The notes: a model not told the origin generated them from the sequence alone. A stretch of 56,856 bases of DNA from an uncultured Candidatus Saccharibacteria bacterium (GCA_964625245.1 CAZVAN010000002.1:1-56856), one strand, 5' to 3'. Counted from the stretch's first letter, positions 3,811-56,856 are shown. Numbers and translations are program-made.

Positions 3811-4329
3811 TTATGCGGGTTCGGTTGGAGTTTCGGCGGTCGCGGCCTTGGCCTCAGCTTCTTCGGCTACTTTTTCGGCCTTGGCGGCCTCGGGATCATA
3901 GGATTCTAGTTTTTCTTCGTGGATTTTAGCTTCCTCTAGCTCAGCAACTTCGTCGTGGATGGTGTTAACAGCTTGGCGGTCAAAATCGATACTGCTCAAG
4001 CGAGCGCTTTTACCGGTTAGTTCGCGCATGTAGCTAAGATAGTTACGGCGCACACGGCTTCTTCGGACAATTTCAACTTTCAAAACGTTGGGTGAATGTA
4101 TTAGGTAGGTTTTTTCTACGCCAACACCGCTAGCTACGCGCCTAACGGTAAAGGTTTGGGTTAGGCTGCCACCGCGGCCAACTTTTATAACCAGCCCCTC
4201 AAATACCTGCACTCGCTCTTTGCCGCCTTCAACAATTTTTTGATGTACTTTAACGGTATCGCCGCTTTTTATTGCCACGACGGCCGATTTCTTCTGCATA
4301 TCACTAATTTGTTGGGCCACGCTCTTCAT
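3811..4329 (-). CDS. rplS: 50S ribosomal protein L19 with an acidic/Ala-rich C-terminal tail of about 55 aa
   Basis: L19 core GDTVKVHQKIVEGGKERVQVFEGLVI...RRVASGVGVEKTYLIHSP. The tail is rich in E, A and K. Confidence 0.9.
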   Translation of the reverse strand: MKSVAQQISDMQKKSAVVAIKSGDTVKVHQKIVEGGKERVQVFEGLVIKVGRGGSLTQTFTVRRVASGVGVEKTYLIHSPNVLKVEIVRRSRVRRNYLSYMRELTGKSARLSSIDFDRQAVNTIHDEVAELEEAKIHEEKLESYDPEAAKAEKVAEEAEAKAATAETPTEPA

Positions 4330-4380
4330 AATTCTCGGAGTATTCTACCTTATAACACCTTTGCTTGCAAGTCTCCTAGG

Positions 4381-5985
4381 CTAGCCAACTACTCTATAAA
4401 CTTCCTCTAGCGTGGTTAGCCCAGCTATGGCTTTTAGGATGCCATCCTGAAGCATAGTACGCATTCCCTCGCTGACGGCTTTCTCCTGGAGCATTTCGGC
4501 CGTGATCTGATTGGGCGGCAACTTTAGCAACTGTTGTACGCCCGGCGTCATAACCAACTGTTCACGCAAGGCCAACTGTCCGCCATAACCAAAGGGGTTG
4601 GCTTCTGACTTACCGGCTTTATACAGTGTAATTTGGTTAATGTCGGGCCTTGGAACATTGGGCGGCATGCTGGCAAGCACCATTTGCAGTTGTTGCTTCA
4701 ATGCCTCATCGGGCTGGTAGGCCTGCTTGGTGGAATCGTCCAGCCGGCGGACCAGGCGCTGGGCCATTACAAGGTGCATAGCACTGGCAAACAGTGGGTT
4801 CACTCCTACCATATCTAGCAAGCGTGTCAGGGCCGCGGCGGCGTTGGCGGCGTGAAAGGTACTTAGCACCAAATGGCCGGTCAGGGCGCCTTGCAGAGCT
4901 GTACGGGCCGTGTCTTGGTCGCGTATTTCACCTACCATCACTACATCCGGGTCAAGACGTAGCACGGCGCGCAGTTTTTCAGCAAAATTCTGATTGTCCA
5001 GCTGGCCCTCAACCGGTATTTGGACAATGCCGGCCATATTATATTCCACTGGATCCTCTAAGGTTATAATTTTGCGCTCCGGAGTGTTGAGGGTATTGAT
5101 TATCGAATAAAGAGTGGTGGTTTTACCAGAACCGGTTGGCCCAACCACCAGTACCATGCCGGTTGGGTGAGCTATAACATCGTTGACTACATGTGCTTCG
5201 TCAGCGCTTAAGCCGAGATTTTCAAGTTTGAAGAGCTCTAATTTTAGGTTAAATAGTCGCATCACGGCATCCATACCGTAAACCGTCGGTACTGTTTCAA
5301 CGCGCAGATTTAGAGTCACGTCTTCACCGGTAGCCAGCTTATACTGACGGCTGATATGGCCGGTTTGGGGTTCTTTGACGTTCAGCGATACATTAGCGGC
5401 GCTGGCCAGCGCCGCACTCAGATGACGGTATTTTTCCGGGGCAAGATAAGCTACCGGGTGTAGCACGCCGTCCACCCTAAACCTGATGCGGACATTCTCG
5501 CGTTGATTTTCTAGATGAATGTCGCTAGCTTTCAGTTGGTAAGCCTGCTGTACCAGGTAGGCCAGCATGTCGTCCGGGCGCACTCTATCAAGCGTGGCAC
5601 TAACCTGATCAACGAGGGTCTGGGCCGCCGCACCACTGGAAGTTATTGAAATATCCTGATACTCAACTTTTTTGGGTGGGTCGTAGAGCTTCATGTAGTC
5701 CATGTAGCCGCTCTCACTTATGATCGAAAAGTTCAGGCGCTGGTCGGTGAAACGTTTTTCTAGGGTATTAATTGTCTGCTGCGAAGTGTTTGTGGTGATA
5801 CCGAAGTGAATATAGTGAGCATCGGCTACAATCGGCACGGTTTTAAGTCTATAAAGCTCTTCGGTCGTCAGAATGTTTGGATATAGCTGCTTTTGGACAA
5901 TGTTAGTATCAATATATGGCAACCCCAGCACAGCCGCCCGGCGCTGCGTTGTTTGTTCCTCATTTTGGCGGACATCTATTGCCAT
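4381..5985 (-). CDS. pilB: Type IV pilus assembly ATPase PilB (GspE family)
   Basis: Walker A GPTGSGKTTT, plus the GspE N-terminal domain and Asp/His boxes. I trimmed the start to the MAIDVRQ ATG at 5985. The longer ORF to 6066 overlaps the divergent trmH-like gene. Confidence 0.88.
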   Translation of the reverse strand: MAIDVRQNEEQTTQRRAAVLGLPYIDTNIVQKQLYPNILTTEELYRLKTVPIVADAHYIHFGITTNTSQQTINTLEKRFTDQRLNFSIISESGYMDYMKLYDPPKKVEYQDISITSSGAAAQTLVDQVSATLDRVRPDDMLAYLVQQAYQLKASDIHLENQRENVRIRFRVDGVLHPVAYLAPEKYRHLSAALASAANVSLNVKEPQTGHISRQYKLATGEDVTLNLRVETVPTVYGMDAVMRLFNLKLELFKLENLGLSADEAHVVNDVIAHPTGMVLVVGPTGSGKTTTLYSIINTLNTPERKIITLEDPVEYNMAGIVQIPVEGQLDNQNFAEKLRAVLRLDPDVVMVGEIRDQDTARTALQGALTGHLVLSTFHAANAAAALTRLLDMVGVNPLFASAMHLVMAQRLVRRLDDSTKQAYQPDEALKQQLQMVLASMPPNVPRPDINQITLYKAGKSEANPFGYGGQLALREQLVMTPGVQQLLKLPPNQITAEMLQEKAVSEGMRTMLQDGILKAIAGLTTLEEVYRVVG

Positions 5986-7648: not shown

Positions 7649-10600
7649 TTAGCGCACTATCACATTTGTGGAGCCGAAGATTTTGGCTAGTTCTCGCACG
7701 CTCTCCTCATTGATAGCAATCGTTTGCGGCAGTTTTATAGCCTGCTTGCTGGAACTCGCTCCTGTGACCAAAACAACTTCATTGTCGCCGGCAAAACCGT
7801 CCAACTTTTCTTTAAGACTTAGGAGCATGGGCTGATTAGAGCTATCTTCCATTCTGATAAAGACTTTCGGCGGTAAATCTTTTTTAGGCATAGGCGGGGT
7901 TTTGGCCCGCCCACCTATATAGGCCGTCTGCTTAGTAATTGAGTACAGCTGTCCCTTTGGCTGGTAGTTTTTGGCCTCAGCAAGCTCAATCAAACGGGCT
8001 TCCTCAAGCATCAGCTTTGGTCCATCATCGCGCGATACATCAATCCGGCCACTGGCCAAGATAATTTTGTCTTTCTGCCATACCGGCCTGGTGCTGTCGA
8101 AAATTTTGGGAAAAACTACTACCTCCATTTCACCGGCGGCGTCGGCTATTTTAACAAAAGCCATCTTACTACCATTTTTGGTTGTTATCTCGCGAATATC
8201 GTTAATAAAGCCGCCAATACTGACGTTCTTCTCGGCTAAAGATTCGTTTATCTGGCTGATTGGCAGGGCAATTTCAGATAGTAGTACTTCATAGTCCTCT
8301 AACGGGTGGTGACTTAAATAAAGCCCCAGTAGTTCCCTTTCCCATGCCAGCTGAGTATGAGTCTCCACGTCCTGAGCCGGTACTGACAGAACCAATTTTG
8401 ACGGCGCCATATCAACCGATTCACCGAAAAGATCAACCTGCCCACTGCTGGCTGATTTTTGGTATTGGTTGGCTAGGTTAAGAATGTTATCAATATTGGC
8501 AAGCAGTACTACACGCTCCGAAAAATCGTCCATAGCCCCGGATTTTATGAGACTTTCCAGAGCCTTGCGGTTAACTATCCGGCAGTTCACATTTTTACAA
8601 AAGTCTTCAATGGATTTAAATTTGCCGCCAAGCGTTTGCCGAGCCCGGAGAATTTCTTCAACCGCACCGTGGCCAACGTTTTTTATGGCGTCCATGCCGA
8701 AGCGGATCTGAAATTTTTCCGGAACGACAGCGAACTCGTGAAATGATTCATTAACACTTGGCGCTAGAACTTCTATGCCCATGTGTTTACATTCGGCGAT
8801 TTCAATGCTCAAACGGTCAATATTGTCATAGTCGCTAGTCATAACAGCCGCCATGTAGGCGTCTGGGTAATTGGCTTTAAGATAGGCCGTTTGGTAGGCA
8901 ATAAGGCCATAGCAAGCCGAGTGCACTTTATTAAAACAATAAGCCGCGAATTCTTCCAGCTGCAGCCAGAGTTTTTCAATCAACCGGCGGTCGGCTCCGA
9001 CAGTTTTGATGGCGCCTTCGATAAATTCGTTTTTCATTTTGGCCATAACTTCTGGAATTTTTTTGCCGATGGCTTTTCGCAATGTATCAGCCTGTCCACC
9101 AGTGAAGCCGCATAAATCCTTGCTAATTTGCATAACCTGTTCCTGGTAGACAATAATGCCGTAGGTGTTTTCAAGCGAGGCTTTCATGGCCGGGTGCAGA
9201 TACTCAATTTTTTTAGTGCCATGTTTTCTAGCAATGAAGTCATCTATCCACTGCATTGGACCGGGACGATAAAGTGCCACCATGGCGATAATGTCTTCAA
9301 AAACCGTAGGTTTGAGTTGCTTGAGGTAACGCTTCATGCCAGCCGACTCAAGCTGGAAGACGCCGGTCGTATCACCCCGCTGAAGTAGCTCAAAAGTTCG
9401 CTTGTCGTCCAAAGGGATATCTTCAATCCGAATATCCTTGCCGTGAACCTTTTTTATAATTCGCAGCGTATTTTTAATGGTTGTTAGGTTTGAGAGTCCC
9501 AAAAAGTCCATCTTAAGCAGCCCCAGCTCCTCCACCGGGACCATAGAATATTGAGTGGCGACCACACCCTTCTGAGACATTTCCAGAGGTGTAAACTTGG
9601 TTAGCTTGTCGGGCGCTATAACTACACCAGCGGCGTGAACGCCGTGACTGCGAATCGTCCCTTCTAGCTTTGTAGCCAGGTCAAAAACCTTGGCCGACTG
9701 GGCATTGTTATTATTCTCAGCCAGTAGTTCCGGAATGGCTTTGAGTGACTTGGCCAGGGGTGTATGCCGGCCCTGAACCGGCGGCGGAATCATTTTTGCC
9801 AGCCGATCAGCATCGGCATAAGGCACCTGTAAAACTCTAGCTACATCGCGTACTGAGTTTCTAGCCGCCATCCGGCCAAAAGTTACGATATTGGCCACTT
9901 TGTCGTGACCATACTTGTCTAGACAGTATTCAATAACCTCATCGCGCCGGGTGTCTTGGATATCGATATCCATATCCGGCATGCTGATACGGTCGGGATT
10001 CAGAAAACGTTCGAAAAGTAGATCGTATTTAAGCGGGTCGATTTCGGTGATTCTAAGAGCGTAGGCCAAGATAGAACTGGCAGCGCTACCGCGTCCTGGT
10101 CCAAAAACAATTCCGTTATCTTTACCCCAGTTTATAAAATCTTGGACTATCAAAAAATAGCCGTTAAAGCCCATAGTATTAACCACGTCGAGTTCATACT
10201 CAGCTCTGGCTACGACTTCTTTGCTGAGTTTCTTCTTGGCGCTCGCAATAGTCAATTTACTAAGGTTATTTCTGGGCACTTCGGCATACCGCCAGGCCAG
10301 CCCTTGCCAAACTATGGTTTCCAGGAAATTTTTTTCGGTTTCGTTTTGGGGCGTCGGAAATTTAGGAATTAAGATTTTACCAAGCTCAATCTGGACATCG
10401 CAGCGGTCGGCGATTGCTCTCGTGTTTAATATTAGTTCCGGATTAGTGCTGCCCCAACGTTTGATAATCTCTTTAGGCTCAGCCACGTGTAGTTCAAATT
10501 GCTTTAAACTAAAACGGTTTTCGTCAGACAAAAAAGCACCCGTCTGAACGCAGAGCAATATTTCATGGGCTTCCTGGTCTTCGTGGTTTAGGTAGTGAGC

Positions 10601-25549: not shown

Positions 25550-25714
25550 TCATATAAGGCTCCAGGTACTAAAAAATGCAACCATAGCAAGGAGTAAAGC
25601 GGCAAATACGAAAATACCTACTACCACAAGCAGCAACGCCAGTACAGGAATCCCTGACGGCTTGCCCGCTTCTACCTCTCCGGCGAGCTTATCTAATTCT
25701 GGAAACTCACTCAT
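25550..25714 (-). CDS. Small (54 aa) single-pass membrane protein between the transketolase halves
   Basis: The ATG at 25714 overlaps the tktN stop by 8 nt. One strong TM helix (IPVLALLLVVVGIFVFAALLLAMVAFF). Confidence 0.45.
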   Translation of the reverse strand: MSEFPELDKLAGEVEAGKPSGIPVLALLLVVVGIFVFAALLLAMVAFFSTWSLI

Positions 25715-26573
25715 GTTCGCTCCGGATTTTACCGCCAAGTGTCCGCAACTCTTTGAGAGCTTTAACAGCCTGTTCGTGATTGGGTGTAACGCCGTGCCAA
25801 TGAAAATCGTACTCCATGAAATCCACACCCTTGCCCGGAACGTTATGGGCAATTATCATTACCGGCTGCTCCACAATGGCTTTGGCCATCTGTACAGCGT
25901 CTATTACGGCTTCCATATCATTGCCGTTAATCTCCAGCACATGCCAACCAAAGGCTTCCCATTTAGTTCTGAGGTCGCCCAGTGGCATGACCGTTTCCGT
26001 TGGCCCGTCTATCTGGATGTTGTTACGGTCAGTTATAGCGATGATGTTACTAAGGCGATATTTGCTGGCCAGCATAGCGGCTTCCCAGATGTTGCCCTCG
26101 TCCTGCTCGCCGTCACCAAGAATTACATAAACCCAGCGGTGCTGAGTCTTATCCATACGCATAGCTAACGCTATGCCAGCAGCTTGGCTAAGCCCGGAGC
26201 CAAGGGGACCGCTGGTATTTTCCAGGCCTGGTAGCCGTTCGCGCTCAGGGTGACCTTGCAAGCGGCTGCCAAATTGCCGAAGAGTCATAAGCTCTTTAAT
26301 GGGAAAGAAGCCGGCGTGGGCCATCGTAGCGTACTGAACCGGTACACAGTGGCCATTGCTTAGAAGTAATATGTCCCTCTCGTCCCAATCCGGGTTTTGG
26401 GGATCGTATTTCATAAGATGAAAGTATAGAGCCGTAAAAATATCTGCCAGGCCCAGAGGCCCGGCGGAGTGGCCACTGCCAGCGTGCTCCAACATCTTAA
26501 TAATGTCCTCGCGGATTTGATTGGCTTTTTTCTGCAACGCCTCCAGAGAATAAGTTTTTTGTTTATCAGCCAT
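25707..26573 (-). CDS. tkt: Transketolase, N-terminal (TPP-binding) subunit
   Basis: GSGHSAGPLG and GDGEQDEGNIWE motifs. Confidence 0.92.
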   Translation of the reverse strand: MADKQKTYSLEALQKKANQIREDIIKMLEHAGSGHSAGPLGLADIFTALYFHLMKYDPQNPDWDERDILLLSNGHCVPVQYATMAHAGFFPIKELMTLRQFGSRLQGHPERERLPGLENTSGPLGSGLSQAAGIALAMRMDKTQHRWVYVILGDGEQDEGNIWEAAMLASKYRLSNIIAITDRNNIQIDGPTETVMPLGDLRTKWEAFGWHVLEINGNDMEAVIDAVQMAKAIVEQPVMIIAHNVPGKGVDFMEYDFHWHGVTPNHEQAVKALKELRTLGGKIRSEHE

Positions 26574-26583
26574 ACTGCTTAAG

Positions 26584-26597
26584 ATTATAGCTCAAAA
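26584..26597 (-). promoter_or_regulatory. Candidate promoter of tktN: TTTTGAG-C-TATAAT
   Basis: On the minus strand it reads TTTTGAGCTATAAT, ending 10 nt before the tktN ATG. That implies a very short leader. Confidence 0.4.
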
Positions 26598-26612
26598 GAA
26601 TGTTTTTTGGGT

Positions 26613-26734
26613 CCCCGCGGCTTGAGGATAAGCCGTGGGGTTAAGCGTAAGGACATGCGCAAGCTGGAAGTAGTTTACGTTTAGAAAACTACGGAAGCTG
26701 AAGTTATGGCCTAAGCTGGTTGTCCTTCAAAAGC
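26613..26734 (+). repeat. Structured repeat element, copy 3 (divergent)
   Basis: 11-bp hairpin 26613-26640 with a G-U pair on the plus strand only, and an inner hairpin 26670-26676/26686-26692. It ends in the shared box gttgtccttcaaaagc (26719-26734), 8 nt before the rpe stop. Confidence 0.45.
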
Positions 26735-26742
26735 GTCAGCGG

Positions 26743-27387
26743 TTATGTCGTGCCGGTTTCGTCGGCGATACGGACCAAGTCATTGTAGGCTTTTCCTGGA
26801 TTTTCGGCAGTTTGCAGATAGCCGCCAACGTTAAGAACATCTACGCCGCCTTCAACCAAGCCGGCAACATTTTGCAGGTTTACGCCGCCATCCCAACCAA
26901 TTTCTAGTTCCGGTTTTTGATTTTTTAAAAACTTAACTTTGGCTAGCAATCCAAAATCGGCGTGGCCGCCAAAATTGCCTAAATCGCCAGAAAATATTAG
27001 AACGTGATCAATTTTTGGCAAGGCTTTTAAGATAATCTCAGGCGCTGTCTGCGGCAGCAGAGCTACTCCAATTTTTACTTTCCGGTCGCGGCAATAGTCC
27101 GCCAACTTGTCAAAGTCACCACCGGCTTCGGCATGAACAATAATCATATTGGGATTATGGGCCATAACCATCTCCACAACTGCTATAGGTTCTTGGTACA
27201 TTAAATGGATGTCGGCTTTGATGCCCACCGGCCACCAAACTTCCCTAGGGTTAATGGTAGCTGTCTTAGCAAATATGCCGTCCGTCAGATCTATCTGTAT
27301 CCTATGGCCTAAATGAGCCACTCGTTCAATTTGCTCGTCATAAGTCCCGCGCTCAGCAGCCAGTATCGTTGGGCAGATTAGGGGCAT
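26743..27387 (-). CDS. rpe: Ribulose-phosphate 3-epimerase family protein (divergent)
   Basis: 214-aa TIM-barrel pattern (ICPTILA...IQIDLTDG...). The context is rpiB and tkt. Confidence 0.6.
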   Translation of the reverse strand: MPLICPTILAAERGTYDEQIERVAHLGHRIQIDLTDGIFAKTATINPREVWWPVGIKADIHLMYQEPIAVVEMVMAHNPNMIIVHAEAGGDFDKLADYCRDRKVKIGVALLPQTAPEIILKALPKIDHVLIFSGDLGNFGGHADFGLLAKVKFLKNQKPELEIGWDGGVNLQNVAGLVEGGVDVLNVGGYLQTAENPGKAYNDLVRIADETGTT

Positions 27388-50811: not shown

Positions 50812-51924
50812 TTATTTTGAAATTTGTTCCCAAGGCAGGCTGGACTTGCCGAAATGGCCGTAGGCCGAGGTCTGCGAGTAAATTGGACGGCGCAGGTTTA
50901 ACTTGTCAATAATGCCTTTAACGGACGTGTCTATTAACTTATCTTTAAAGTCCTCTAGCTCCTTCTCGCTGACTGTGGCCGTTCCGAATGTATCAATGGT
51001 TTGCATCAGAGGCAGCGGTTGCCCAATCACGTAGGCTAGGCCTACTTCGCACTTGCTGGCCAAGCCGGCAGCCACAATATTTTTGGCAATATAGCGGGCG
51101 GCGTAGGCACCGCTTCTGTCCACTTTGCTGGGGTCTTTGCCGGAAAATGCTCCGCCGCCAACGCGGGCATAACCGCCGTAGGTATCAACCACAATTTTGC
51201 GCCCCGTCAGCCCGGCGTCGCTCTCCGGACCAGGAATGTGCCAGAGTCCCGTACCATTTACTGTTATGGCCTTGGCCACCGGCAGTTTAAATTTGAATTT
51301 TTCAAATACCGGAGTAAATATGGTCTTTATAACGTCTTGCTTTACCTGCTCAGCGGAAGTTTGTTCATCGTGAGCCACGGCGGCTACCAGTTTCTCGACT
51401 GCTACCGGCTTACCGTCTTCGTAGCGCACGGTAACTTGGGCTTTGCCATCCGGGCGGAGCCACTTTAGCTGACCCTTATTCCGGGCTTCGTCAATCCGGG
51501 CGGCGATGGCGTGAGCCAGAGCAATAGGTAGTGGCATTAGCTCTGTGGTTTCATTGCAGGCAAAGCCAAACATCATGCCTTGGTCGCCGGCGCCATCGGC
51601 ATCAACGCCCATAGAAATTTCCGGCGATTGTTCATGAATATCATTGCTAAATGCCGATTCCTGGCTAAAGCCCCAAGCCGGGATGTTATAGCCCAGTTCT
51701 TCAACTTTACTTCGCACAATTGACTCATAATCCAGCTTGGCGGAAGTTTTTATTTCCCCGAACAGAGCAATCTGGTTAGCCCCGGCCACAGTTTCTAGGC
51801 CTGTACGGCTAAGCGGATCTTGCTTGAGCGCAGCATCCAGGATGGCGTCGGATATGGCGTCACAAATTTTATCCGGGTGGCCGGCACAAACACTCTCTGA
51901 GGTGAAGAACGTTATTTTGGGCAT
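50812..51924 (-). CDS. metK: S-adenosylmethionine synthetase
   Basis: Starts MPKITFFTSESV..GHPDK, with GAGDQG and GGGAFSGKD. The longer track ORF to 51969 runs into the riboswitch. Confidence 0.95.
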   Translation of the reverse strand: MPKITFFTSESVCAGHPDKICDAISDAILDAALKQDPLSRTGLETVAGANQIALFGEIKTSAKLDYESIVRSKVEELGYNIPAWGFSQESAFSNDIHEQSPEISMGVDADGAGDQGMMFGFACNETTELMPLPIALAHAIAARIDEARNKGQLKWLRPDGKAQVTVRYEDGKPVAVEKLVAAVAHDEQTSAEQVKQDVIKTIFTPVFEKFKFKLPVAKAITVNGTGLWHIPGPESDAGLTGRKIVVDTYGGYARVGGGAFSGKDPSKVDRSGAYAARYIAKNIVAAGLASKCEVGLAYVIGQPLPLMQTIDTFGTATVSEKELEDFKDKLIDTSVKGIIDKLNLRRPIYSQTSAYGHFGKSSLPWEQISK

Positions 51925-52066
51925 AAAAAAATCCTTTCTTAACAAGGAAAGGACTGCATTCTCACGCATATCTTTCCCTTGCGGGCGAGACTTGGCACCT
52001 TGCTTATGTAATAGGTAGGTTGTCGGCAGCTTAACGGGCTCGATCCCTAGCTGCTCTCTTGATATT
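51925..52066 (-). promoter_or_regulatory. SAM-I (S-box) riboswitch with terminator expression platform
   Basis: On the minus strand the aptamer 51968-52066 reads AUAUCAAGAGAGCAGCUAGGGAUCGAGCCCGUUAAGCUGCCGACAACC...GGUGCCAAGUC...GAUAU. The terminator is uccuuuc/gaaagga + U7 (51925-51953). Confidence 0.85.
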
Positions 52067-52114
52067 TAAATTAAATTGTTAACGACGTTATTGTACCACG
52101 GCCCTTTTTCTCTA

Positions 52115-52147
52115 GTGCTTATTTTGAGTCTGCTTATGCTTGCAAAA
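52115..52147 (+). repeat. Array junction repeat J1 (core GCTTATTTTGAG + TCTGCTTATGCTTGCAAAA)
   Basis: 52117-52147 is identical over 31 nt to 53064-53094. Confidence 0.9.
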
Positions 52148-52174
52148 TGATTTTTTTGTAGTCAAGATTATTTA

Positions 52175-53047
52175 ATGCCTGAGATACAACGTCCAAGTGT
52201 AGGCGCGGGCCAACCGGAAACAAATTTGCCGGTAGACCTCTCTACTCTAGTTTTTGGTACTGCCCGCTATGGTGCCGCCAAAGTGGATGGTATCATCGTG
52301 CCAACCCCCGGTCCACATGATGACCAAGTACGTCTTATCCAGGAGGCAGTAAGCCTGGGGTATAACTTTTTTGATACGGCACAGGGCTACGGTGATTCCG
52401 AAGTGGTTGTTGGCCAGGCGCTGAGCGGACACTTGCGGGATGAGGTATTTATTGCCACCAAAGTCGGGATGCAACCTGATTCAGATATAGACACCTCAAT
52501 TGCAAAAAGCGTAGATCGGCTCGGCACCGAACCCGATGTACTTTATATACATAACCGCTGGGATGGGATTTTGGATGGCTCGATGGATGACTGCTTGGAA
52601 GCGGTGGACAATGCCATAGATGCCGGTCTGGCTGGTCATATCGGCATCAGTAATTTTAGATTAGATGAGCTTAATTACGCGCTCGGTTCCCTGCGCAACC
52701 CAGTTTTGTTTTATCAAGCCAAGGTTAACTTGCACGCCCCTCGACCCGATGCGGCTGAACTGTTTGAACTCTGCCAGGCAGAGAGAATTCAGTTTACAGC
52801 CTCCTCGACTCTGGACCGCGGCGGTGTATTTGAAGTTGATAATCCAGCACTTGTAGAAATGACTAGGCGCTACGATCTAACACTAGCCCAGCTAGCAATC
52901 CTGGGAGTCAGTTCGCTTGGCATTCTGCCAGTGGTCCAGACGCATAATTTAGAGCATATGGCCGAAAATATGCGTAGCCTAAACACCGAACTAGACAAAC
53001 AAGATGAGCAATACCTAGCCGATATTCTTCTAAGCAGAACCAGCTAG
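52175..53047 (+). CDS. Aldo/keto reductase
   Basis: GYNFFDTAQGYGDSE and the AKR fold pattern. Confidence 0.85.
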   Translation: MPEIQRPSVGAGQPETNLPVDLSTLVFGTARYGAAKVDGIIVPTPGPHDDQVRLIQEAVSLGYNFFDTAQGYGDSEVVVGQALSGHLRDEVFIATKVGMQPDSDIDTSIAKSVDRLGTEPDVLYIHNRWDGILDGSMDDCLEAVDNAIDAGLAGHIGISNFRLDELNYALGSLRNPVLFYQAKVNLHAPRPDAAELFELCQAERIQFTASSTLDRGGVFEVDNPALVEMTRRYDLTLAQLAILGVSSLGILPVVQTHNLEHMAENMRSLNTELDKQDEQYLADILLSRTS

Positions 53048-53057
53048 ACCAAAATTA

Positions 53058-53094
53058 CCGCTCGCTTATTTTGAGTCTGCTTATGCTTGCAAAA
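53058..53094 (+). repeat. Array junction repeat J2
   Basis: ccgctcGCTTATTTTGAGTCTGCTTATGCTTGCAAAA. Confidence 0.9.
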
Positions 53095-53120
53095 AACTGG
53101 CTCTGATTCAGAATATAATA

Positions 53121-53651
53121 ATGCCTAAACCAGAATTTACTATTGAAAGATTGACCGCTTACTCCCCGGCTGATGCCGCAGAACTGGGAATATTACTGCA
53201 CTATGAAAGTCCAAGCCGCCCATCATCACCACTACCGGAGCGAGTAATGCGTGATGCCGTAGACGATCCGGACGACAGAACTATAATTGTGGCCCGTGAG
53301 GCTCTCAGCTACCGGATTGTAGGTTCGGAGAGTCTCAACCTCATAAAAAGTCCTGACGTGGGCGAGGCCGGAATTGGCCGAATTGCGTGGCTTGGTTTTG
53401 TGTGCACCCATCCGTCATACAGGAATCGGGGCATTTATAGCAGGGTTTGGCGGGCCGGTCTTGAATGGTGTGCTGAGCGCGAAGCCGCAACCCTAGATTT
53501 TACTTCAAACCCCAACGCCCCCGATGGCCTTCGGGATGATGCAATTGGTTTTTATGAATCCCACGGCGCAGTCCGGCTTAACACCAATCCCTACAAGCTT
53601 AAAATTAAAGAGGCTCTGGAAGCCGAGCGCCAAGCAGATTCGTCGACCTAA
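53121..53651 (+). CDS. GNAT family N-acetyltransferase
   Basis: WLGFVCTHPSYRNRGIYSRVW is an acetyl-CoA binding motif. Confidence 0.8.
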   Translation: MPKPEFTIERLTAYSPADAAELGILLHYESPSRPSSPLPERVMRDAVDDPDDRTIIVAREALSYRIVGSESLNLIKSPDVGEAGIGRIAWLGFVCTHPSYRNRGIYSRVWRAGLEWCAEREAATLDFTSNPNAPDGLRDDAIGFYESHGAVRLNTNPYKLKIKEALEAERQADSST

Positions 53652-53669
53652 CTGCCCGCATATTTTGAG
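53646..53669 (+). repeat. Array junction repeat J3 (includes the GNAT ACC-TAA stop)
   Basis: ACCTAACTGCCCGCATATTTTGAG, directly followed by gg-TATAAT. Confidence 0.85.
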
Positions 53670-53684
53670 GGTATAATTTAACGG

Positions 53685-54203
53685 ATGAAATATGTAGCAC
53701 TTCTGCGCGGCATCGGCCCTGGCAACCCCAACATGCACGGCTCTAAGCTGAAGAGTGTTCTTGAAGATTTGGGATTCAGTAATGTAGCGCCTGTTATCTC
53801 TAGCGGTAATGTAGTTTTTGAATCCGACTCGAAAGATATCGCCAAATTAGAAGATGTTATTCAGCAGTCATGGCCTAAAAAACTAGGCTTCAACAGTGCC
53901 ACGATTGTGCGCAGCCGCGAGCAGCTGCAAGCCCTGGTAGATAAAAACCCCTACGGAAGTGCCGACCACAACAGGCAATCTTATTTGCTGGTAACTTTCT
54001 TTAAGCATCCGCCCGACCGTGCCATAACCAGCCAACCCAACTTCTATACAGGCACCGGCGTTAATGCCCTATGCAGCACCATTGATACCACTGCGTCCAA
54101 GACACCCGATTTTATGTCCAAACTGGAAAGGCAATTCGGCAAAGATATTACTTCGCGTACATGGCTGACAATTCAGCGAATCCTCGCCAAGATGGAGCGG
54201 TAA
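53685..54203 (+). CDS. DUF1697 family protein
   Basis: MKYVALLRGIGPGN...L...GF.NV...ISSGNVVFES. Confidence 0.8.
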   Translation: MKYVALLRGIGPGNPNMHGSKLKSVLEDLGFSNVAPVISSGNVVFESDSKDIAKLEDVIQQSWPKKLGFNSATIVRSREQLQALVDKNPYGSADHNRQSYLLVTFFKHPPDRAITSQPNFYTGTGVNALCSTIDTTASKTPDFMSKLERQFGKDITSRTWLTIQRILAKMER

Positions 54204-54221
54204 CCGCCCGCTTATTTTGAA
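54201..54221 (+). repeat. Array junction repeat J4 (includes the TAA stop)
   Basis: TAACCGCCCGCTTATTTTGAa. Confidence 0.85.
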
Positions 54222-54366
54222 CGGGGGCTAAAGGTGTTAAAATTAGCTTAACGCGGCAAGTCACTTAGAAATGCTATGCGCCTTCCGTTTTGGCGAACAA
54301 TCGTAGCAGCGACACGAAAAGCCGCAACTAAGCGGATCTTTAACAAATTTAAAGAAAGGATTCGTT

Positions 54367-54537
54367 ATGGCAAAGGATGTTAATCCGGAGCATGCCAAAT
54401 ACTACGAAGACCACATGAAGCACTGGCGTTCATGGGGTTCGTGGTTTAGTTGGGGATCACCAGTCGGACTGGGACTGTTCTTTATTGCAGTCTGTTTTTC
54501 GATTTGGCTGCTGGGCAAAACCTTCAACTGGGGTTAA
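54367..54537 (+). CDS. Small (56 aa) Trp-rich membrane protein
   Basis: Manual ORF MAKDVNPEHAKYYEDHMKHWRSWGSWFSWGSPVGLGLFFIAVCFSIWLLGKTFNWG. AAGGA SD 7 nt upstream and a terminator downstream. Confidence 0.55.
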   Translation: MAKDVNPEHAKYYEDHMKHWRSWGSWFSWGSPVGLGLFFIAVCFSIWLLGKTFNWG

Positions 54538-54550
54538 TCCCAAGCAAAAG

Positions 54551-54585
54551 CAGCGCGGCTGGCAAGAACCAACGCGCTGTTTTTA
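54551..54585 (+). terminator. Intrinsic terminator
   Basis: Stem cagcgcg/cgcgctg with a 15-nt loop, followed by TTTTT. Confidence 0.65.
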
Positions 54586-54587
54586 TT

Positions 54588-54603
54588 CCTCGCTTATTTT
54601 GAG
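54588..54603 (+). repeat. Array junction repeat J5
   Basis: cctcGCTTATTTTGAG. Confidence 0.8.
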
Positions 54604-54648
54604 CGGCGTAGACTATAAATAAGTCTAATTTATGTTATAGTATGCTCC

Positions 54649-55338
54649 ATGTCAGAAAGCCGTTTTTCCGGTAGCTCTCGCTCGCCACTTAGCACTGCTC
54701 AGACGGCGGAGAGTTTAAGGATGCAATTGGCTTTAGAGGAATTTGGGCAGACACTCCCCCGTAACGTTCTGCAGTCTGCACCTCGGACCCCAGAATACAA
54801 ACAAAGAAGTCCTAGAACTTGTTTTTACGCCTCCTTAATAGCGGCACGCCTGTCGCTCGGATCCAGGATGCTGCCGTCTGAGGGACATATCGCCGCACAG
54901 GCCAATCGCGCCGGGCTGCTGGGTGAACATGGTGCCGAAACTTTTTCCGAACACCGCGATGACCAAGCTGCCTTTGTAGACAAGGTATTGGGGCTACAAA
55001 TACGTTTTATAGACCAGAAATATGATGATGAGCGCATAGATGCCCTAACCCGAGGGTTAAGAGATGAGGGCAAACCTGTGCTATTTGGTACTTATCGACA
55101 TTGGGTTGTGTTGGATGGTTTTAAACGTACCCGAAAAGCAGGATGGATAGGAATGAATCCGGCCAGCGGCCGCAGGTTGGAAGATACCGGCGAAGAATTA
55201 TACCCGCCATATATCGCCAGCAGATTGGTTGCGTCTGGTATGCCGCTGGTAGTAATAGAGAATTCTCATGAGCCAGCGGCCCGATTCCGCCCTGCACACC
55301 ACAGCACTGCCCGCTCTATCCCCGCAGTCCAAACCTAA
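54649..55338 (+). CDS. Predicted papain-fold (C39-like) cysteine peptidase
   Basis: Q-x5-C (KQRSPRTCFYASL) and HWVVLDG....WIGMNP match the Gln/Cys/His/Asn(Asp) order of C39-type peptidases. Confidence 0.5.
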   Translation: MSESRFSGSSRSPLSTAQTAESLRMQLALEEFGQTLPRNVLQSAPRTPEYKQRSPRTCFYASLIAARLSLGSRMLPSEGHIAAQANRAGLLGEHGAETFSEHRDDQAAFVDKVLGLQIRFIDQKYDDERIDALTRGLRDEGKPVLFGTYRHWVVLDGFKRTRKAGWIGMNPASGRRLEDTGEELYPPYIASRLVASGMPLVVIENSHEPAARFRPAHHSTARSIPAVQT

Positions 55339-55356
55339 CCATCCGTTTATTTTGAG
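55333..55356 (+). repeat. Array junction repeat J6 (includes the ACC-TAA stop)
   Basis: ACCTAACCATCCGTTTATTTTGAG. Confidence 0.8.
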
Positions 55357-55385
55357 CGTAGCGTAGTATTGTATTTATAGCATAA

Positions 55386-56108
55386 ATGTTGTATGATATG
55401 TCAATGGAATTATCTGGAAGCGAAGGTTTGCCAAATCCAGTTTTTAGTCAATCAATGGCCGAGCGTCTGGACAAAGAGACGTCATTTGAGTCTGTCGGAA
55501 AAAGCCAGCAAGACCGACAGGAAGAAATCAGGCATGCCAGGGAATTTAGACGAAGCTTGATTCAAGACGCGCTGGCTCAAATCGCTGTGCTGAAAGAATG
55601 GCCCGTCGAATACTTAGACTCTGAGAGAGACAAATTTTATACCACGGAACGCCGGCGACAAAATTATGTAGAAAAATACGAGGCAAGGGATCAGTTAGAA
55701 GTCGAAGAACTGCTGTCAGGCCTCGATTTAGATAACACTGAGCACTTTTATCAATTAATGGAGAAGTTGAGGCAGGTCTATACGGATTTAAAGATGCGTC
55801 TGATGATAGTTGAAATGGAAACTAGGCGGTTGGTCTTCAAGCTTTATGGTCAGTCTACCCACACTAAAGAGACACGAGAAGAGCGCATCGTTAGATTGCT
55901 TAACAACGAAGAGGGAGAGGTAGATATAGCCGATGTTGTGCTTGCAGAAATTGATGGAATGCGCGAAGAAGGTAAAGACGAAGTTAGCATTTTTCGTGCC
56001 CTGATGCGCAAGTACCATCCCGATGTATCCGAAATAGAAAAGGCCAAAGAAATAACTCGACTTATAATCTCCCTCTACGACAGTAGGTTAAAACACTTCG
56101 TCATTTAA
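55386..56108 (+). CDS. Coiled-coil protein with a C-terminal J-domain-like segment (HPD motif)
   Basis: IFRALMRKYHPDVSEIEKAKEITRLIISLYD resembles J-domain helices II-III. An alternative start is at 55404. Confidence 0.5.
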   Translation: MLYDMSMELSGSEGLPNPVFSQSMAERLDKETSFESVGKSQQDRQEEIRHAREFRRSLIQDALAQIAVLKEWPVEYLDSERDKFYTTERRRQNYVEKYEARDQLEVEELLSGLDLDNTEHFYQLMEKLRQVYTDLKMRLMIVEMETRRLVFKLYGQSTHTKETREERIVRLLNNEEGEVDIADVVLAEIDGMREEGKDEVSIFRALMRKYHPDVSEIEKAKEITRLIISLYDSRLKHFVI

Positions 56109-56130
56109 ATACTTAACGAGTTAGGTATTC

Positions 56131-56173
56131 CCTGCCCGCTTATTTTGAGCGTGCTTATGCTTGCAATGCAAGC
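56131..56173 (+). repeat. Array junction repeat J7 with palindromic extension
   Basis: cctgcccGCTTATTTTGAGCGTGCTTATGCTTGCAATGCAAGC. The palindrome spans 56159-56173. Confidence 0.85.
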
Positions 56174-56214
56174 TCTTCAGGAGTAGTTTTACTTCTTAGC
56201 AAGAGATTGAAATT

Positions 56215-56808
56215 ATGGACTTTGGTGAAAAAGGTGAACTTATATTTGAAGATGAACTCGAGGCCAGAGTTGCGGTTGAGTTATTGAATGGAGCTGGCCG
56301 GTCCGATTTAGTTGACCATGTGAGACCGCCGCTAAACAATCCAGGTATTGGCTACTTTGAGTTTTCCAGAAGAATGCGAGATCTTAGGCATGGACAAGTC
56401 GAAGAAGGCGTACATAGAGTTGAGGAACCCGACGCATTAATCGAGATAGTTAAGACCCTAGTCAAAACGTCTAATATGCACTACACCTTTAGGACGAATC
56501 GGGCCGGTACCAGACGGGACTTTATGGGTGCCAAACTTCGAGAGCTACATAAAAAAAACGAGGATAGGCAGGCCGAGTCAAAAATAGCATCAACCGATAG
56601 GCGTATGACTAAAGTCGAGTTGGGCGACGCGATGATCCTTGGTTATATGACCGCAGAGGAGGCGGATTCAATCGCTAAAAGAAGAGCCTTTGTCGAACAA
56701 TATTTGGCCGAACGTGGCTGGGATGCCACCAACCTAACAATTGAGCAACTTATCGAAGTAAGGTCGCAGCCAGGCTGGAAGTTATCTGACGAAGCGTCAC
56801 CAAGCTAA
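56215..56808 (+). CDS. Hypothetical protein (197 aa)
   Basis: ORF only. I recognise no family. Confidence 0.5.
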   Translation: MDFGEKGELIFEDELEARVAVELLNGAGRSDLVDHVRPPLNNPGIGYFEFSRRMRDLRHGQVEEGVHRVEEPDALIEIVKTLVKTSNMHYTFRTNRAGTRRDFMGAKLRELHKKNEDRQAESKIASTDRRMTKVELGDAMILGYMTAEEADSIAKRRAFVEQYLAERGWDATNLTIEQLIEVRSQPGWKLSDEASPS

Positions 56809-56835
56809 GAATTTCAGATTGTGCAGAAAGTTAAG

Positions 56836-56850
56836 ACCTAACCGCCCGCC
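56836..56850 (+). repeat. Array junction repeat J8 (5' part only)
   Basis: ACCTAACCGCCCGCc is in frame with the preceding ORF. The sequence then diverges from the TTATTTTGAG half just before the window ends. Confidence 0.5.
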
Positions 56851-56856
56851 CCACAC

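Follow-up and report, generated by a model that had tools for sequence, protein, structure and literature searches.

What kind of element places a row of unrelated accessory genes beside metK in a soil Saccharibacteria bacterium (Saccharimonadales, CPR), with a shared junction of about 30 bases between successive genes? In the window, by which we mean the whole stretch of DNA analysed (56,856 nt), an earlier note had recognized a motif copy in every intergenic gap at the right-hand end and had likened the layout to integron-type or Xer-module cassette arrays. Our analysis supports that reading, identifying the feature as a chromosomal array of single-gene cassettes in a hyperplastic Saccharimonadales site, flanked by the riboswitch region 5' of metK on one side and, in relatives, by the mgsA/rarA 3' end on the other. 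No published description of such an array was found in the literature. The features of the window are, from left to right (HMM E-values refer to the junction profile described below):

50812-51969, minus strand: metK, Pfam-confirmed
51965..52068, minus strand: SAM riboswitch of metK (Rfam RF00162, full-length match, 40.5 bits, E 7.7e-7)
52117..52147, plus strand: junction 1, array start; right half CTTATTTTGAG only, plus a 'class II' extension TCTGCTTATGCTTGCAAAA; no left half CCTAACCGCCCGC
52175..53047, plus strand: cassette 1, aldo/keto reductase, 290 aa (PF00248, E 6.8e-38)
53052..53094, plus strand: junction 2; degenerate left half ACCGCTCGC, right half and class II extension (HMM E 0.0023)
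53121..53651, plus strand: cassette 2, GNAT acetyltransferase (PF00583, E 2.2e-7)
53646..53677, plus strand: junction 3, canonical short form, ACCTAAC TGCCCGC ATATTTTGAG GG TATAAT (HMM E 3e-4)
53685..54203, plus strand: cassette 3, DUF1697 protein, 172 aa (PF08002, E 7.7e-28)
54198..54221, plus strand: junction 4, GGTAACCGCCCGC TTATTTTGAA; internal TAA is the stop of cassette 3 (HMM E 2.8e-5)
54222..54587, plus strand: cassette 4, a complete transcription unit of leader, ORF and intrinsic terminator
54222-54366, plus strand: conserved leader of cassette 4, about 145 nt, with covariation
54367-54537, plus strand: ORF of cassette 4, 56-aa membrane peptide
54551-54587, plus strand: intrinsic terminator of cassette 4
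54589..54603, plus strand: junction 5, CTCGC TTATTTTGAG, immediately 3' of the cassette 4 terminator (HMM E 0.07)
54649..55338, plus strand: cassette 5, 229-aa protein of unknown function (no Pfam and no PDB match at E<=1)
55333..55356, plus strand: junction 6, ACCTAAC CATCCGT TTATTTTGAG; internal TAA is the stop of cassette 5 (best HMM match, E 3e-7)
55386..56108, plus strand: cassette 6, 240-aa protein of unknown function (no significant Pfam or PDB match)
56131..56168, plus strand: junction 7, CCTGCCCGC TTATTTTGAG with class II extension CGTGCTTATGCTTGCAATG (HMM E 0.001)
56215..56808, plus strand: cassette 7, 197-aa protein of unknown function (no significant Pfam or PDB match)
56836..56856, plus strand: junction 8, left half only (ACCTAACCGCCCGC), cut by the window end

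The riboswitch, also recognized previously, scores slightly under the Rfam gathering threshold (40.5 vs 44.4 bits) and forms the conserved left flank of the array. Pfam bore out the earlier labels for the first three cassettes; those of 'papain-like peptidase' and 'J-domain-like' protein found no support in Pfam or PDB sequence searches. The longest ORF of cassette 2 encodes 176 aa, and the later start chosen by the gene caller in the related contig L001 gives 134 aa. Homologues of cassette 3 (60–80% identity) are common in Saccharimonadales in ordinary contexts lacking a junction. The gene for the 56-aa membrane peptide is present as described; it is no exotic cargo, a point missed in the earlier note, and its family (570 clusters) is widely conserved in Saccharimonadales and has a native locus elsewhere. 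The protein of cassette 7 recurs identically on four contigs from four samples. Junctions 1 and 2 are identical across 31 nt, and the class II extension of junction 1 also heads the first forward cassette of L029. The array continues beyond the window edge in L001 (99.93% identity to the window), where a 26-nt insert and then the right half, CTTATTTTGAGCGTATAAT-N7-ATG, complete the partial copy at 56836. Three further junction/gene units extend the array to at least ten cassettes, with Pfam assigning a GNAT (191 aa) and a 2'-5' RNA-ligase-like protein (188 aa) past junction 8, followed by a small membrane ORF.

Allowing at most one mismatch, CTTATTTTGAG matches the window ten times against 1.46 expected, a count reached by none of 100 shuffles. 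Seven of these matches (52118, 53065, 53659, 54211, 54593, 55346 and 56139), all on the plus strand, fall one to each of the seven intergenic gaps of the 52.1–56.2 kb region, in agreement with the earlier claim; the other three (18618, 37333 and 43064) lie inside ORFs without the flanking consensus. A profile HMM trained solely on junctions from other contigs, and therefore an independent test of the window, returned six array gaps as its top six matches (E 3e-7 to 0.07), the best match outside the array gaps having an E-value of 0.13. Neither the motif search nor the HMM found an intergenic copy in the remaining 52 kb of the window, and the motif was likewise absent from about 155 kb covering eight array-less Saccharimonadales loci. 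A search of 185,579 species genomes gave four single matches, a chance-level count, all in unrelated organisms. Considering its absence from array-less relatives and from the rest of the window, the motif is not a generic promoter, a possibility that the earlier note had proposed to check.

The site itself is a hot spot, and its content is far from invariant among relatives. In L032/L033, mgsA and metK are adjacent with 117 bp between them, representing the empty site, while L159, L160 and L031 carry one or two genes there and no motif. At the same position, L029 has three copies of the junction and a completely different set of four cassette genes, its array adjoining a GC-rich reverse gene that is also present in relatives without the motif. 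The mgsA gene marks the array end in L009, L013/14, L023, L028 and L029.

Cassette content is polymorphic at the level of strains and species, and the breakpoints lie within the junction, as the cassette reading had predicted. Three strains of one species (L013, L022 and L014), with shared parts 99.4–100% identical, have three different cassette orders, and all the switches fall within junction elements. An 86-aa cassette has a different successor in each of L011, L012 and L013, and the neighbours of the 56-aa unit differ in five contigs, L014 having the unit twice. This unit (cassette 4) shows 83–90% nucleotide identity to cassettes in L013, L014, L019, L024 and L028, with homology bounded by 54201 and 54604/5, and four other contigs have a different next gene at the point corresponding to junction 5. 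The same cassette was found with different neighbours in at least six independent comparisons, the switch always being inside the junction; the neighbour changes of a 70-aa cassette also have their breakpoints in the repeat. Cassettes common to different species are 83–97% identical, compared with 65–77% for the flanking core genes. It is at the junction that the array acquires, drops, duplicates and rearranges cassettes.

The canonical junction reads AAnCC-TAA-CCGCCCGC-TTATTTTGAG-CG-TATAAT-N6-8-ATG, with 33 nt from stop to start, and junctions range from 24 to 33 nt. The suggestion that the repeat starts at or in the stop codon holds for three of the seven window junctions (53649, 54201 and 55336); in the others, the stop lies 21–59 nt upstream. 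Junction 3 illustrates the complete arrangement, its internal TAA being the stop of cassette 2 and an ATG following 7 nt downstream. More widely, this same TAA, 8 nt 5' of the right half, ends the upstream ORF in 17 of the roughly 36 junctions for which such an ORF could be identified, and TATAAT lies exactly 2 nt 3' of GAG with ATG 6–8 nt further on in 22 of 37 listed sites, which include a few chance matches. That the right side of the junction runs into a -10 box spaced for a leaderless start had been overlooked in the earlier note. From sequence, we predict that the junction acts as an expression adaptor, providing a stop codon for the left gene and a putative -10 box for the right gene, whose spacing would put the transcription start at or beside the ATG and so yield a leaderless mRNA. 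TATAAT-N6-7-ATG also occurs at other Saccharimonadales genes that have no other part of the junction, which makes the -10 box commonplace and sets the TAACCGnCCG...TTTTGAG core apart as an additional feature. In 22 short-form junctions drawn from several species, this core is 82–100% conserved against 55–73% for the -10 box.

Our best explanation as a whole, combining the array, the adaptor junction and site-specific exchange, has a probability of about 0.4, the same figure that we give to exchange by a trans-acting site-specific recombinase. Under this proposal, exchange would be conservative recombination inside a core of about 28 bp, in which a GC-rich spacer CCGCCCGC separates the left arm AAnCCTAA from the right arm TTATTTTGAG. 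A recombinase encoded elsewhere in the genome, possibly in a tyrosine-recombinase/Xer-like manner, would excise circles of junction plus ORF, which it would then integrate at any copy of the junction; where inserts separate the two halves, the site would be dead and fixed, and toxin-antitoxin cassettes may help to stabilize the arrays. The sharply delimited, dyad-symmetric core argues for such a mechanism, as does the fact that right-half variants stay linked to the downstream cassette (TTTTGCG to the 86-aa gene, CCCTTTTRAG to the 70-aa gene) and the left arm and TAA to the upstream one. Xer/dif modules (Acinetobacter pdif modules, IMEX at dif) are among the closest known systems, with a short site of about 28 bp, A/T-rich arms of the form ...TAA / TTA(T)... 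around a short centre, small gene modules between site copies, tandem build-up at one chromosomal site and a recombinase supplied in trans from the chromosome, as proposed here. However, canonical XerC/XerD arms and a 6-bp spacer are not recognizable in the array, its spacer being 8 bp and GC-rich, and its copies are all direct, in contrast to the inverted sites flanking pdif modules. Nothing marks the locus as a dimer-resolution site, and no Xer gene was seen in the incomplete genome. Several points count against site-specific exchange. Arm symmetry is weak (about 5/8 positions), and the spacer varies across junctions (CCGCCCGC, CTGCCCGC, CCGTCCGT, CCGGCCGC and CCATCCGT), a variation with which a tyrosine recombinase should cope badly. 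Inserts interrupt many junctions, either separating the two halves or lying between GAG and the -10 box. In the few strain pairs that are informative, the switch falls at the left edge of the core, in its middle or at its right edge, with no single position demonstrable. Moreover, the junction-like TTCTTTTGAGCTATAAT upstream of the housekeeping transketolase gene raises the possibility of the right half being a promoter element.

A quite possible, if still tentative, alternative keeps the stop-plus-promoter adaptor and replaces the recombinase with homologous or microhomology-mediated shuffling between junction copies, new alleles arriving through natural transformation as in the 'minimal mobile elements' (MMEs) of Neisseria. 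No recombinase gene was found in the 52 kb of the window left of the array or in the flanks of L013/14/22, L028 and L029, as the earlier note had reported for the window, and the lack of a recombinase near the arrays counts against site-specific exchange and fits shuffling. The switch points, which share no one fixed position, fit it as well. Saccharibacteria are naturally competent (PMC10633639 / PMC10187176). A parallel is offered by the promoter/stem-loop (PeSL) mobile regulatory cassettes of T4-type phages, which run from an upstream stop codon through a promoter to a downstream start and form mini-circles; their GC-rich stem-loops vary in position, and indels that distinguish close relatives break at these cassettes (Arbiol et al. 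2010, PMC2839356; Comeau et al. 2014, PMC4122927). Shuffling of PeSLs in hyperplastic regions is homologous or microhomology-mediated. Both systems repeat a composite intergenic stop-promoter-start motif between small non-essential ORFs of a hyperplastic region, with variable GC-rich stem-loops and with indel or replacement breakpoints inside the motif. GC-rich palindromes occur at variable positions in the array junctions, CCTGCCTGCCGGCAGGCAGG between GAG and TATAAT in L014 and L025 and GGCGGG-N9-CCCGCC in L013/L022, which together fold at -17.8 kcal/mol (z -2.3), and the same stop/hairpin/TTTTGAGCTATAAT order recurs between rpe and tkt in the window. On the other hand, PeSLs belong to phage genomes and have a full -35/-10 sigma-70 promoter, a Shine-Dalgarno sequence and a constant stem-loop, whereas the array lies in a bacterial chromosome and no -35 box, hairpin or Shine-Dalgarno sequence was found in its canonical junction. 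Its best-conserved parts, TAACCGnCCG and TTTTGAG, exceed the -10 box in conservation and correspond to no known promoter or terminator element. Identity tracts between junction variants span only about 10–20 nt, short for RecA-type exchange, and the right half goes with the downstream cassette in the informative pairs, where no exchange was seen within the longest identical stretch, TTTTGAGCGTATAAT. Neisseria MMEs share the fixed site between two conserved genes, the strain-variable whole genes and a naturally competent bacterium, but they have no internal repeat between cassette genes and exchange through homology in the flanking conserved genes.

It is improbable that the repeat serves solely in cis-regulation, as promoter plus operator for co-regulated accessory genes, and has no part in recombination, the differences in gene content being due to ordinary indels that chance to end in intergenic DNA. 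The fixed distance of the -10 box from GAG and from ATG, a 14-bp dyad inside the core (TAAnCGnnCGnTTA) that could be the operator of a dimeric regulator, and the similar sequence at the transketolase promoter are all in keeping with regulation. Yet the left half is kept at the upstream gene's 3' end even where non-coding (window junction 8; L013 at 7272), the right half is retained beside reverse cassettes with no forward gene to drive (L014 at 10193), and in several window junctions it lies 30–146 nt from the next start with no fixed -10 spacing. Nor was the motif found in other promoters examined, and the consistent placement of the neighbour switches inside the junction also speaks against regulation alone.

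A degenerate classical integron array, that is, a CALIN (attC cluster with the integrase lost), is very unlikely, two of its defining features being absent. Resemblances to chromosomal integrons (e.g. Vibrio superintegrons) and CALINs are nonetheless extensive: long chromosomal arrays of mostly co-oriented single-ORF cassettes with a species-typical repeat, a stop codon often within that repeat (here in ACCTAAC, matching the attC R'' consensus RYYYAAC), occasional reverse, duplicated and toxin-antitoxin cassettes, and cassette content differing between close strains. The cargo of the arrays (GNATs, glyoxalase, AKR, SDR, MazG-like protein, methyltransferase, Doc toxin with antitoxin, small membrane proteins and numerous orphans) is similar to the gene content of chromosomal integrons, in which acetyltransferases, glyoxalase-type proteins and orphans abound. 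However, attC sites measure 57–141 nt against 24–33 nt for the junction, which has no GTTRRRY partner box and no R' or L'/L'' boxes. As the earlier note had judged, no attC-style palindrome is present, single-strand folding of short and long forms on both strands being no better than shuffles (z -0.6 to +1.3). Besides, intI was not found in any flank examined, each junction has a predicted -10 box for a leaderless start instead of a single Pc promoter serving the array, and most of the repeat appears to travel at the downstream cassette's 5' end, not at the upstream cassette's 3' end. The array host is also a CPR bacterium, and no report of integrons in CPR bacteria was found in the literature.

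Mis-joining at short repeats in the comparative loci, all of them short-read metagenome contigs, is scarcely credible as the source of the polymorphism, given that the canonical short junction is much shorter than the final k-mers implied by contig names (k141, k127), that the window order recurs at 99.9–100% identity in four independent samples and assemblers, that the L013-type and L014/L022-type orders each occur in several contigs (L018, L019), and that NCBI MAGs (GCA_016176605.1, GCA_019662075.1) are the source of both the empty site and the L160 variant.

The arrays also include duplicated and toxin-antitoxin cassettes and, a point overlooked in the earlier note, cassettes in reverse orientation. 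Beside the latter, the junction orientation is kept, and the stop codon of a reverse glyoxalase gene is the complement of the right-half TTA.

Seven ORFs, all on the plus strand, fill 52.1–56.9 kb of the window in a cassette array that starts at the metK riboswitch. As the earlier note had read it, each gap carries a copy of one motif, and the one-ORF-per-repeat layout holds. The features of this region are as follows.

Features of the array region in the window
51965–52068, minus strand: SAM riboswitch of metK, slightly below the Rfam threshold
52118, 53065, 53659, 54211, 54593, 55346 and 56139: CTTATTTTGAG or its one-mismatch variant
54551–54587: terminator stem-loop
56100–56130: inverted repeat ATACTTAAC-GA-GTTAGGTAT

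Allowing one mismatch, CTTATTTTGAG has 10 matches in the window against 1.46 expected, a number that none of 100 shuffles reached; the three matches outside the array are intra-ORF and have no flanking consensus. Repeat finding recovered the same families and added a 31-nt extension, GCTTATTTTGAG(T/C)(C/G)TGCTTATGCTTGCAA, common to junctions 1, 2 and 7 (the class II extension). A profile HMM built only from the junctions of other contigs had six of the array gaps as its six best window matches (E 3e-7 to 0.07), with no comparable match in the remaining 52 kb. Pfam backed the aldo/keto reductase, GNAT and DUF1697 assignments made earlier, while the 'papain-like' and 'J-domain-like' labels are unsupported, with Pfam and PDB sequence searches empty. 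The 56-, 229-, 240- and 197-aa products have no Pfam match, and PDB sequence searches with the three orphan cassettes were likewise empty. In an Rfam scan of the window no family reached the gathering threshold, and a relaxed threshold returned the SAM riboswitch and chance-level matches only. The perfect-ended inverted repeat lies just past the stop of the 240-aa gene, and each half fits the integron core consensus (RYYYAAC / GTTRRRY); this likeness is probably a coincidence, because the element occurs once and has no L boxes.

The array continues to the right. The protein of the last cassette was found on four contigs from four samples, all 99.9–100% identical to the window, and one of these contigs, L001, goes 1.9 kb beyond the window end with three further junction/gene units (a second GNAT, a 2'-5' RNA-ligase-like protein and a small membrane ORF). 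Its copies have the full junction, ...CC-TAA-CCGCCCGC-TTATTTTGAG-CG-TATAAT-N6-8-ATG, which spans 33 nt from stop to start, as does window junction 3. In two L001 copies the left half, with its TAA stop, and the right half, with TTTTGAG, are separated by an insert, CCCAyACyATAAAGCTACGGGGTAAAC..., which explains the copy at 56836 that had been called partial: its left half is genuine, and its right half is displaced by the insert.

In 17 of the ~36 junctions from all related contigs that have an identifiable upstream ORF, the same TAA, 8 nt ahead of the right half, is the stop codon of that ORF. At 22 of 37 listed sites, which include a few chance matches, TATAAT lies two bases past GAG and is followed by 6–8 nt and ATG. 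The consensus of 22 short-form junctions is AAnCCTAACCGcCCGCtTATTTTGAGCGTataaT, with TAACCG.CCG and TTTTGAG conserved at 82–100% against 55–73% for the -10 box; TAAnCGnnCGnTTA forms a 14-bp dyad, and the canonical junction, as read from its sequence, has stop codons in all three forward frames. Junctions measure 24–33 nt, or 58–96 nt with inserts. Folded as single-stranded DNA, both strands of short and long forms did no better than shuffles (z -0.6 to +1.3). A two-hexamer sigma-70 scan called no promoter at the junctions, since a -35 box is lacking; most of them have a -10 box, and strong stem-loops are confined to a subset that does not include the canonical form. The spacing of TATAAT-N6-8-ATG suggests a leaderless promoter; upstream of many other genes, in the window and in relatives, it occurs with no other part of the junction. 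We infer the junction to act as an expression adaptor, combining stop codon and leaderless promoter, and as a recombination point.

A second junction-associated repeat, GGGCTCTATTCCCCCGCC(CCCG), forms a GC hairpin with a preceding GGCGGG. In one species it stands in for the CCTAACCGCCCGC left half at several junctions, and the reverse-oriented cassettes of that species are flanked by it.

Sites of GGGCTCTATTCCCCCGCC(CCCG)
L013: 4955–4975, ~5888–5905, 4360–4385 and 4700–4720
L022: 2745–2725 and 2245–2225

Strains differ in which cassettes they hold and in what order, and the boundaries fall at the repeat; this was confirmed in three strains of one species (contigs L013, L022 and L014) and in comparisons of cassette neighbours. 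The shared parts of the three contigs are 99.4–100% identical and their arrays are different. Between the left flank and the right part common with L022, L013 holds a methyltransferase gene and an 86-aa gene; the same interval of L022 holds a reverse gene, a 70-aa membrane gene and a reverse glyoxalase gene, and in L014 the 70-aa cassette is preceded by a further, different gene. All these switches fall inside junction elements. Downstream of the 86-aa gene, L011, L012 and L013 each have a different cassette. The 56-aa unit (window 54201–54604) is 83–90% identical to copies in five other contigs, two of them in L014, and on both sides homology ends at the junction and the neighbours are different, with the caveat for its use as evidence of exchange that the family has a native locus. 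Some cassettes are reversed with junction orientation retained; the reverse glyoxalase gene takes its stop codon from the right half, as the complement of TTA. In contig pairs with one common neighbour the switch always lies in the core, the informative pairs being too few to fix one position; variants of the right half go with the downstream cassette and the left arm with the upstream one. Between species, shared cassettes are 83–97% identical against 65–77% for flanking core genes, which suggests either interspecies transfer or strong constraint.

The window is chromosomal, with NusA, DnaE, L19, GatAB, UvrB, PheST, MetK and glycolytic and pentose-phosphate genes. MetK homologues at 80–88% identity are labelled Candidatus Saccharibacteria or Saccharimonadales, and their contigs have the ancestral gene order, ...G6PD-ABC-ABC2-mgsA(rarA)-metK.... 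The site is empty in L032 (GCA_016176605.1) and L033, where mgsA and metK are 117 bp apart, and it holds one gene in L159 and two in L160 (GCA_019662075.1) and L031, in each case without the motif. L029 (MetK 88%) carries a GC-rich reverse gene and four forward genes, interspersed with three junction copies, of which one is of the long form and two have the class II extension; the forward genes (314 aa, SDR, 191 aa and 41 aa) are unrelated to the cassettes of the window. A metagenome scan with CTTATTTTGAGCGTATAAT returned 20 loci, 12 of them with full junction context. Because every array that reaches a flank (L009, L013/L014, L023, L028 and L029) stops at the convergent mgsA 3' end, the arrays all sit in a single conserved hot spot, within a subclade of soil Saccharimonadales.

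In four related species a reverse membrane-protein gene of 61–65% GC, in genomes of 48–53% GC, adjoins either the metK riboswitch or the beginning of the array. The gene matches no Pfam family and looks horizontally acquired. Saccharibacteria live on high-GC Actinobacteria, which are a possible source.

GC-rich reverse gene
L029: 9038–9541
L031: 8233–8811
L028: 2739–3338
L159: 9133–9714

The 117-bp mgsA-metK spacer of L032 (9884–10000) contains an inverted repeat, ACCAAAAACTTGAAGC...GCTTCGCTCAGGTTTTGGTA, which is also found inside one array junction of L013 (5905–5960); this element may terminate transcription in both directions or be left over from the ancestral spacer.

The motif might have lain upstream of most genes, as a generic promoter or UP element would; instead it is restricted to the array, and ~36 other gene starts of the window lack it, bar one partial match at tkt. 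The junction is also absent from ~155 kb of array-less relatives. Searched against 185,579 species genomes, the 19-mer CTTATTTTGAGCGTATAAT gave four single matches, consistent with chance, and the source lineage is therefore not among these representatives. On viral contigs a 15-nt junction pattern, too short for an informative result on phage origin, matched at least 120 stretches; among those listed all were single and none had junction context. A dispersed repeat of the REP/BIME or MITE type was rejected, with no hairpin, no TIR and copies confined to the array, as was a tRNA-linked island, the window having no tRNA gene. Across the window, GC skew tracks gene strand and points to no replication terminus or dif.

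The sole junction-like promoter found outside the array is the rpe-tkt intergenic region, which reads, in order, TAACCCC, a GC-rich hairpin (CCCCACGGCTT...AAGCCGCGGGG), TTCTTTTGAGCTATAAT, 10 nt and ATG. This region shares the layout of the long-form junction and hints that the right half derives from, or works as, a native promoter element.

Region of the junction-like promoter in the window
25707–26573: tkt, N-terminal subunit
26574–26650, minus strand: rpe-tkt intergenic region
26743–27387: rpe

Junction architecture, a hot spot and polymorphism located at the junctions are directly visible in these contigs, and the cassette logic proposed earlier, outside any described system, is supported. 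As to mechanism, we favour site-specific recombination by a trans-acting recombinase, at a probability of roughly 0.4. A recombinase encoded elsewhere in the ~1-Mb genome would act on the junction, a ~28–33-bp recombination site would double as universal stop codon and leaderless promoter, and bare ORFs would be inserted, expressed, excised and traded between strains and species. The ~28-bp core is sharply bounded and has dyad symmetry, with A/T-rich arms around an 8-bp GC-rich centre; it is conserved above the -10 box, and above core genes across species, and its two halves segregate with their respective neighbours. However, spacers are variable, many junctions carry inserts, the few informative pairs fix no single crossover position, and a recombinase gene was looked for and not found. 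Every Pfam-matched long ORF of the window falls in a family other than the recombinases, in agreement with the earlier reading; a few long ORFs have no match. Pfam scans also found no recombinase in the flanks of L013/14/22, L028, L029, L031, L032, L159 and L160.

Among known sites of this kind, dif has 28 bp, composed of an 11-bp XerC arm, a 6-bp centre and an 11-bp XerD arm, with inner ends ...ATAA / TTAT.... Set against canonical dif, the core AAnCCTAA-CCGCCCGC-TTATTTTGAG is similar in its inner ends, TAA/TTA(T), and its A/T-rich arms, but the junction centre is 8 bp and the arms agree at only ~5/8 positions. In pdif modules the flanking sites are oppositely oriented, and IMEX integrate at the dimer-resolution site of the chromosome. 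The array shares with pdif modules a short site and a proposed trans-acting enzyme, whereas every junction copy is direct, on one strand, and neither the arms nor the spacer can be recognised as canonical.

Homology-driven shuffling between composite regulatory junctions, supplied by natural transformation, is a serious contender that we hold to be quite possible. The nearest described analogue in anatomy is the PeSL, the promoter/stem-loop regulatory cassette of T4-type phages, for which the same process has been shown: PeSLs span from stop to start and contain a promoter together with a GC-rich stem-loop of variable position; indel breakpoints fall at them, and they give rise to mini-circles (PMC2839356, PMC4122927). 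Here too the indel and replacement breakpoints of close relatives fall inside the junction, some junctions carry GC-rich palindromes at variable positions, the rpe-tkt region resembles the junction layout, and the natural competence of Saccharibacteria is established (PMC10633639 / PMC10187176). In population behaviour the nearest analogue is the Neisseria minimal mobile element. Unlike PeSLs, hosted by T4-type phages, the array is chromosomal and flanked by NusA, DnaE, PheST, MetK and others, and its junction lacks a -35 box and, in the canonical form, a stem-loop. Shuffling by homology is further weakened by the shortness of the identity tracts, and the best-conserved positions correspond to no recognisable promoter or terminator element.

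A purely regulatory repeat is unlikely, considering that the left half is conserved in non-coding 3' tails, the right half is kept beside reverse cassettes and the distance to the next start is variable.

The array behaves like a sedentary chromosomal integron, and its cargo set is typical of chromosomal integrons. Integrons have intI, a tyrosine recombinase gene, next to the array with an attI site; their attC sites are 57–141-nt imperfect palindromes (R''-L''...L'-R', RYYYAAC...GTTRRRY) that fold as single strands, and their cassettes are promoterless single ORFs driven from a common Pc. The junction is not attC-style, as had been noted, with only an RYYYAAC-like box (ACCTAAC), no GTTRRRY partner and no fold; attC or another structured site was rejected, there being no significant ssDNA fold and no Rfam family at gathering threshold. 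Moreover, 22 of the 37 listed sites have their own TATAAT 6–8 nt before ATG, a putative promoter. Because attC and an adjacent IntI, both defining, are absent, the array is not a member of the integron family, and a degenerate integron, which fails on the same two components, is very improbable. An assembly artefact is less credible still: the same arrangements turn up in independent samples, and the assembly k-mers are longer than the canonical short junction.

The genomes of Saccharibacteria and other CPR bacteria are tiny, with few recognised mobile elements, and little has been described of how these bacteria gain and trade accessory genes. In the literature searched, coverage of which was incomplete, no cassette arrays or integrons were described for them. 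The locus is a dedicated, recurrent site for single-gene swaps between strains and species, with a junction that appears to supply both reading-frame termination and a leaderless promoter. The exchange system is of the cassette array or hyperplastic region type, with a realistic chance, short of even, that it is a new site-specific cassette platform; such a Patescibacteria cassette-capture platform would be functionally an integron built from other parts (no attC folding, no adjacent IntI, a promoter per site). Should a site-specific recombinase carry out the exchange, the array would amount to a second answer to the integron problem, built independently, and, considering that Saccharibacteria can now be transformed, a natural promoter-bearing 'landing pad' for their genetics. 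If exchange is homology-driven, it would extend to a bacterial chromosome the phage PeSL principle, in which regulatory repeats are the joints of modular evolution.

The cargo comprises two GNATs, a glyoxalase, an AKR, an SDR, a MazG-like protein, an LCM-type methyltransferase, a Doc toxin, small membrane proteins and many orphans. The last cassette of the L028 array (4144–4683) encodes a Doc/Fic-family toxin (PF02661, HPFxxGNKR motif) behind a 40-aa ORF, probably a toxin-antitoxin pair; toxin-antitoxin cassettes stabilise chromosomal integron arrays. The family of the 56-aa gene has ~570 clusters and a 'native' locus elsewhere in other Saccharimonadales, with a conserved leader, and homologues of the DUF1697 gene at 60–80% identity lie in ordinary contexts; it is thus mostly the order's pangenome that supplies the cassettes. 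The 56-aa cassette, at least, is a complete transcription unit and not a bare ORF.

The leader upstream of this membrane-peptide gene is conserved over ~130–160 nt. In a six-sequence alignment GCGAACAA...GACAC is invariant and a stem shows compensatory GC->AU, CG->UA and UA->CG changes, and with no Rfam match the leader may be an undescribed cis-regulatory RNA.

Leader of the 56-aa gene
Window: 54222–54366
L013: 6291–6455
L028: 3474–3602
L154/L156/L158: ~9850–10000

At the native locus of the 56-aa gene, the gene list of a 32,006-nt contig from another Saccharimonadales genome (JGI 3300056388) has a run of ~11 co-oriented accessory genes, among them NTP_transf_5, a metallophosphatase, two glyoxalases, 3-dmu-9_3-mt and DUF1697, with the peptide gene as the last; a second variable region may adjoin the peptide gene there.
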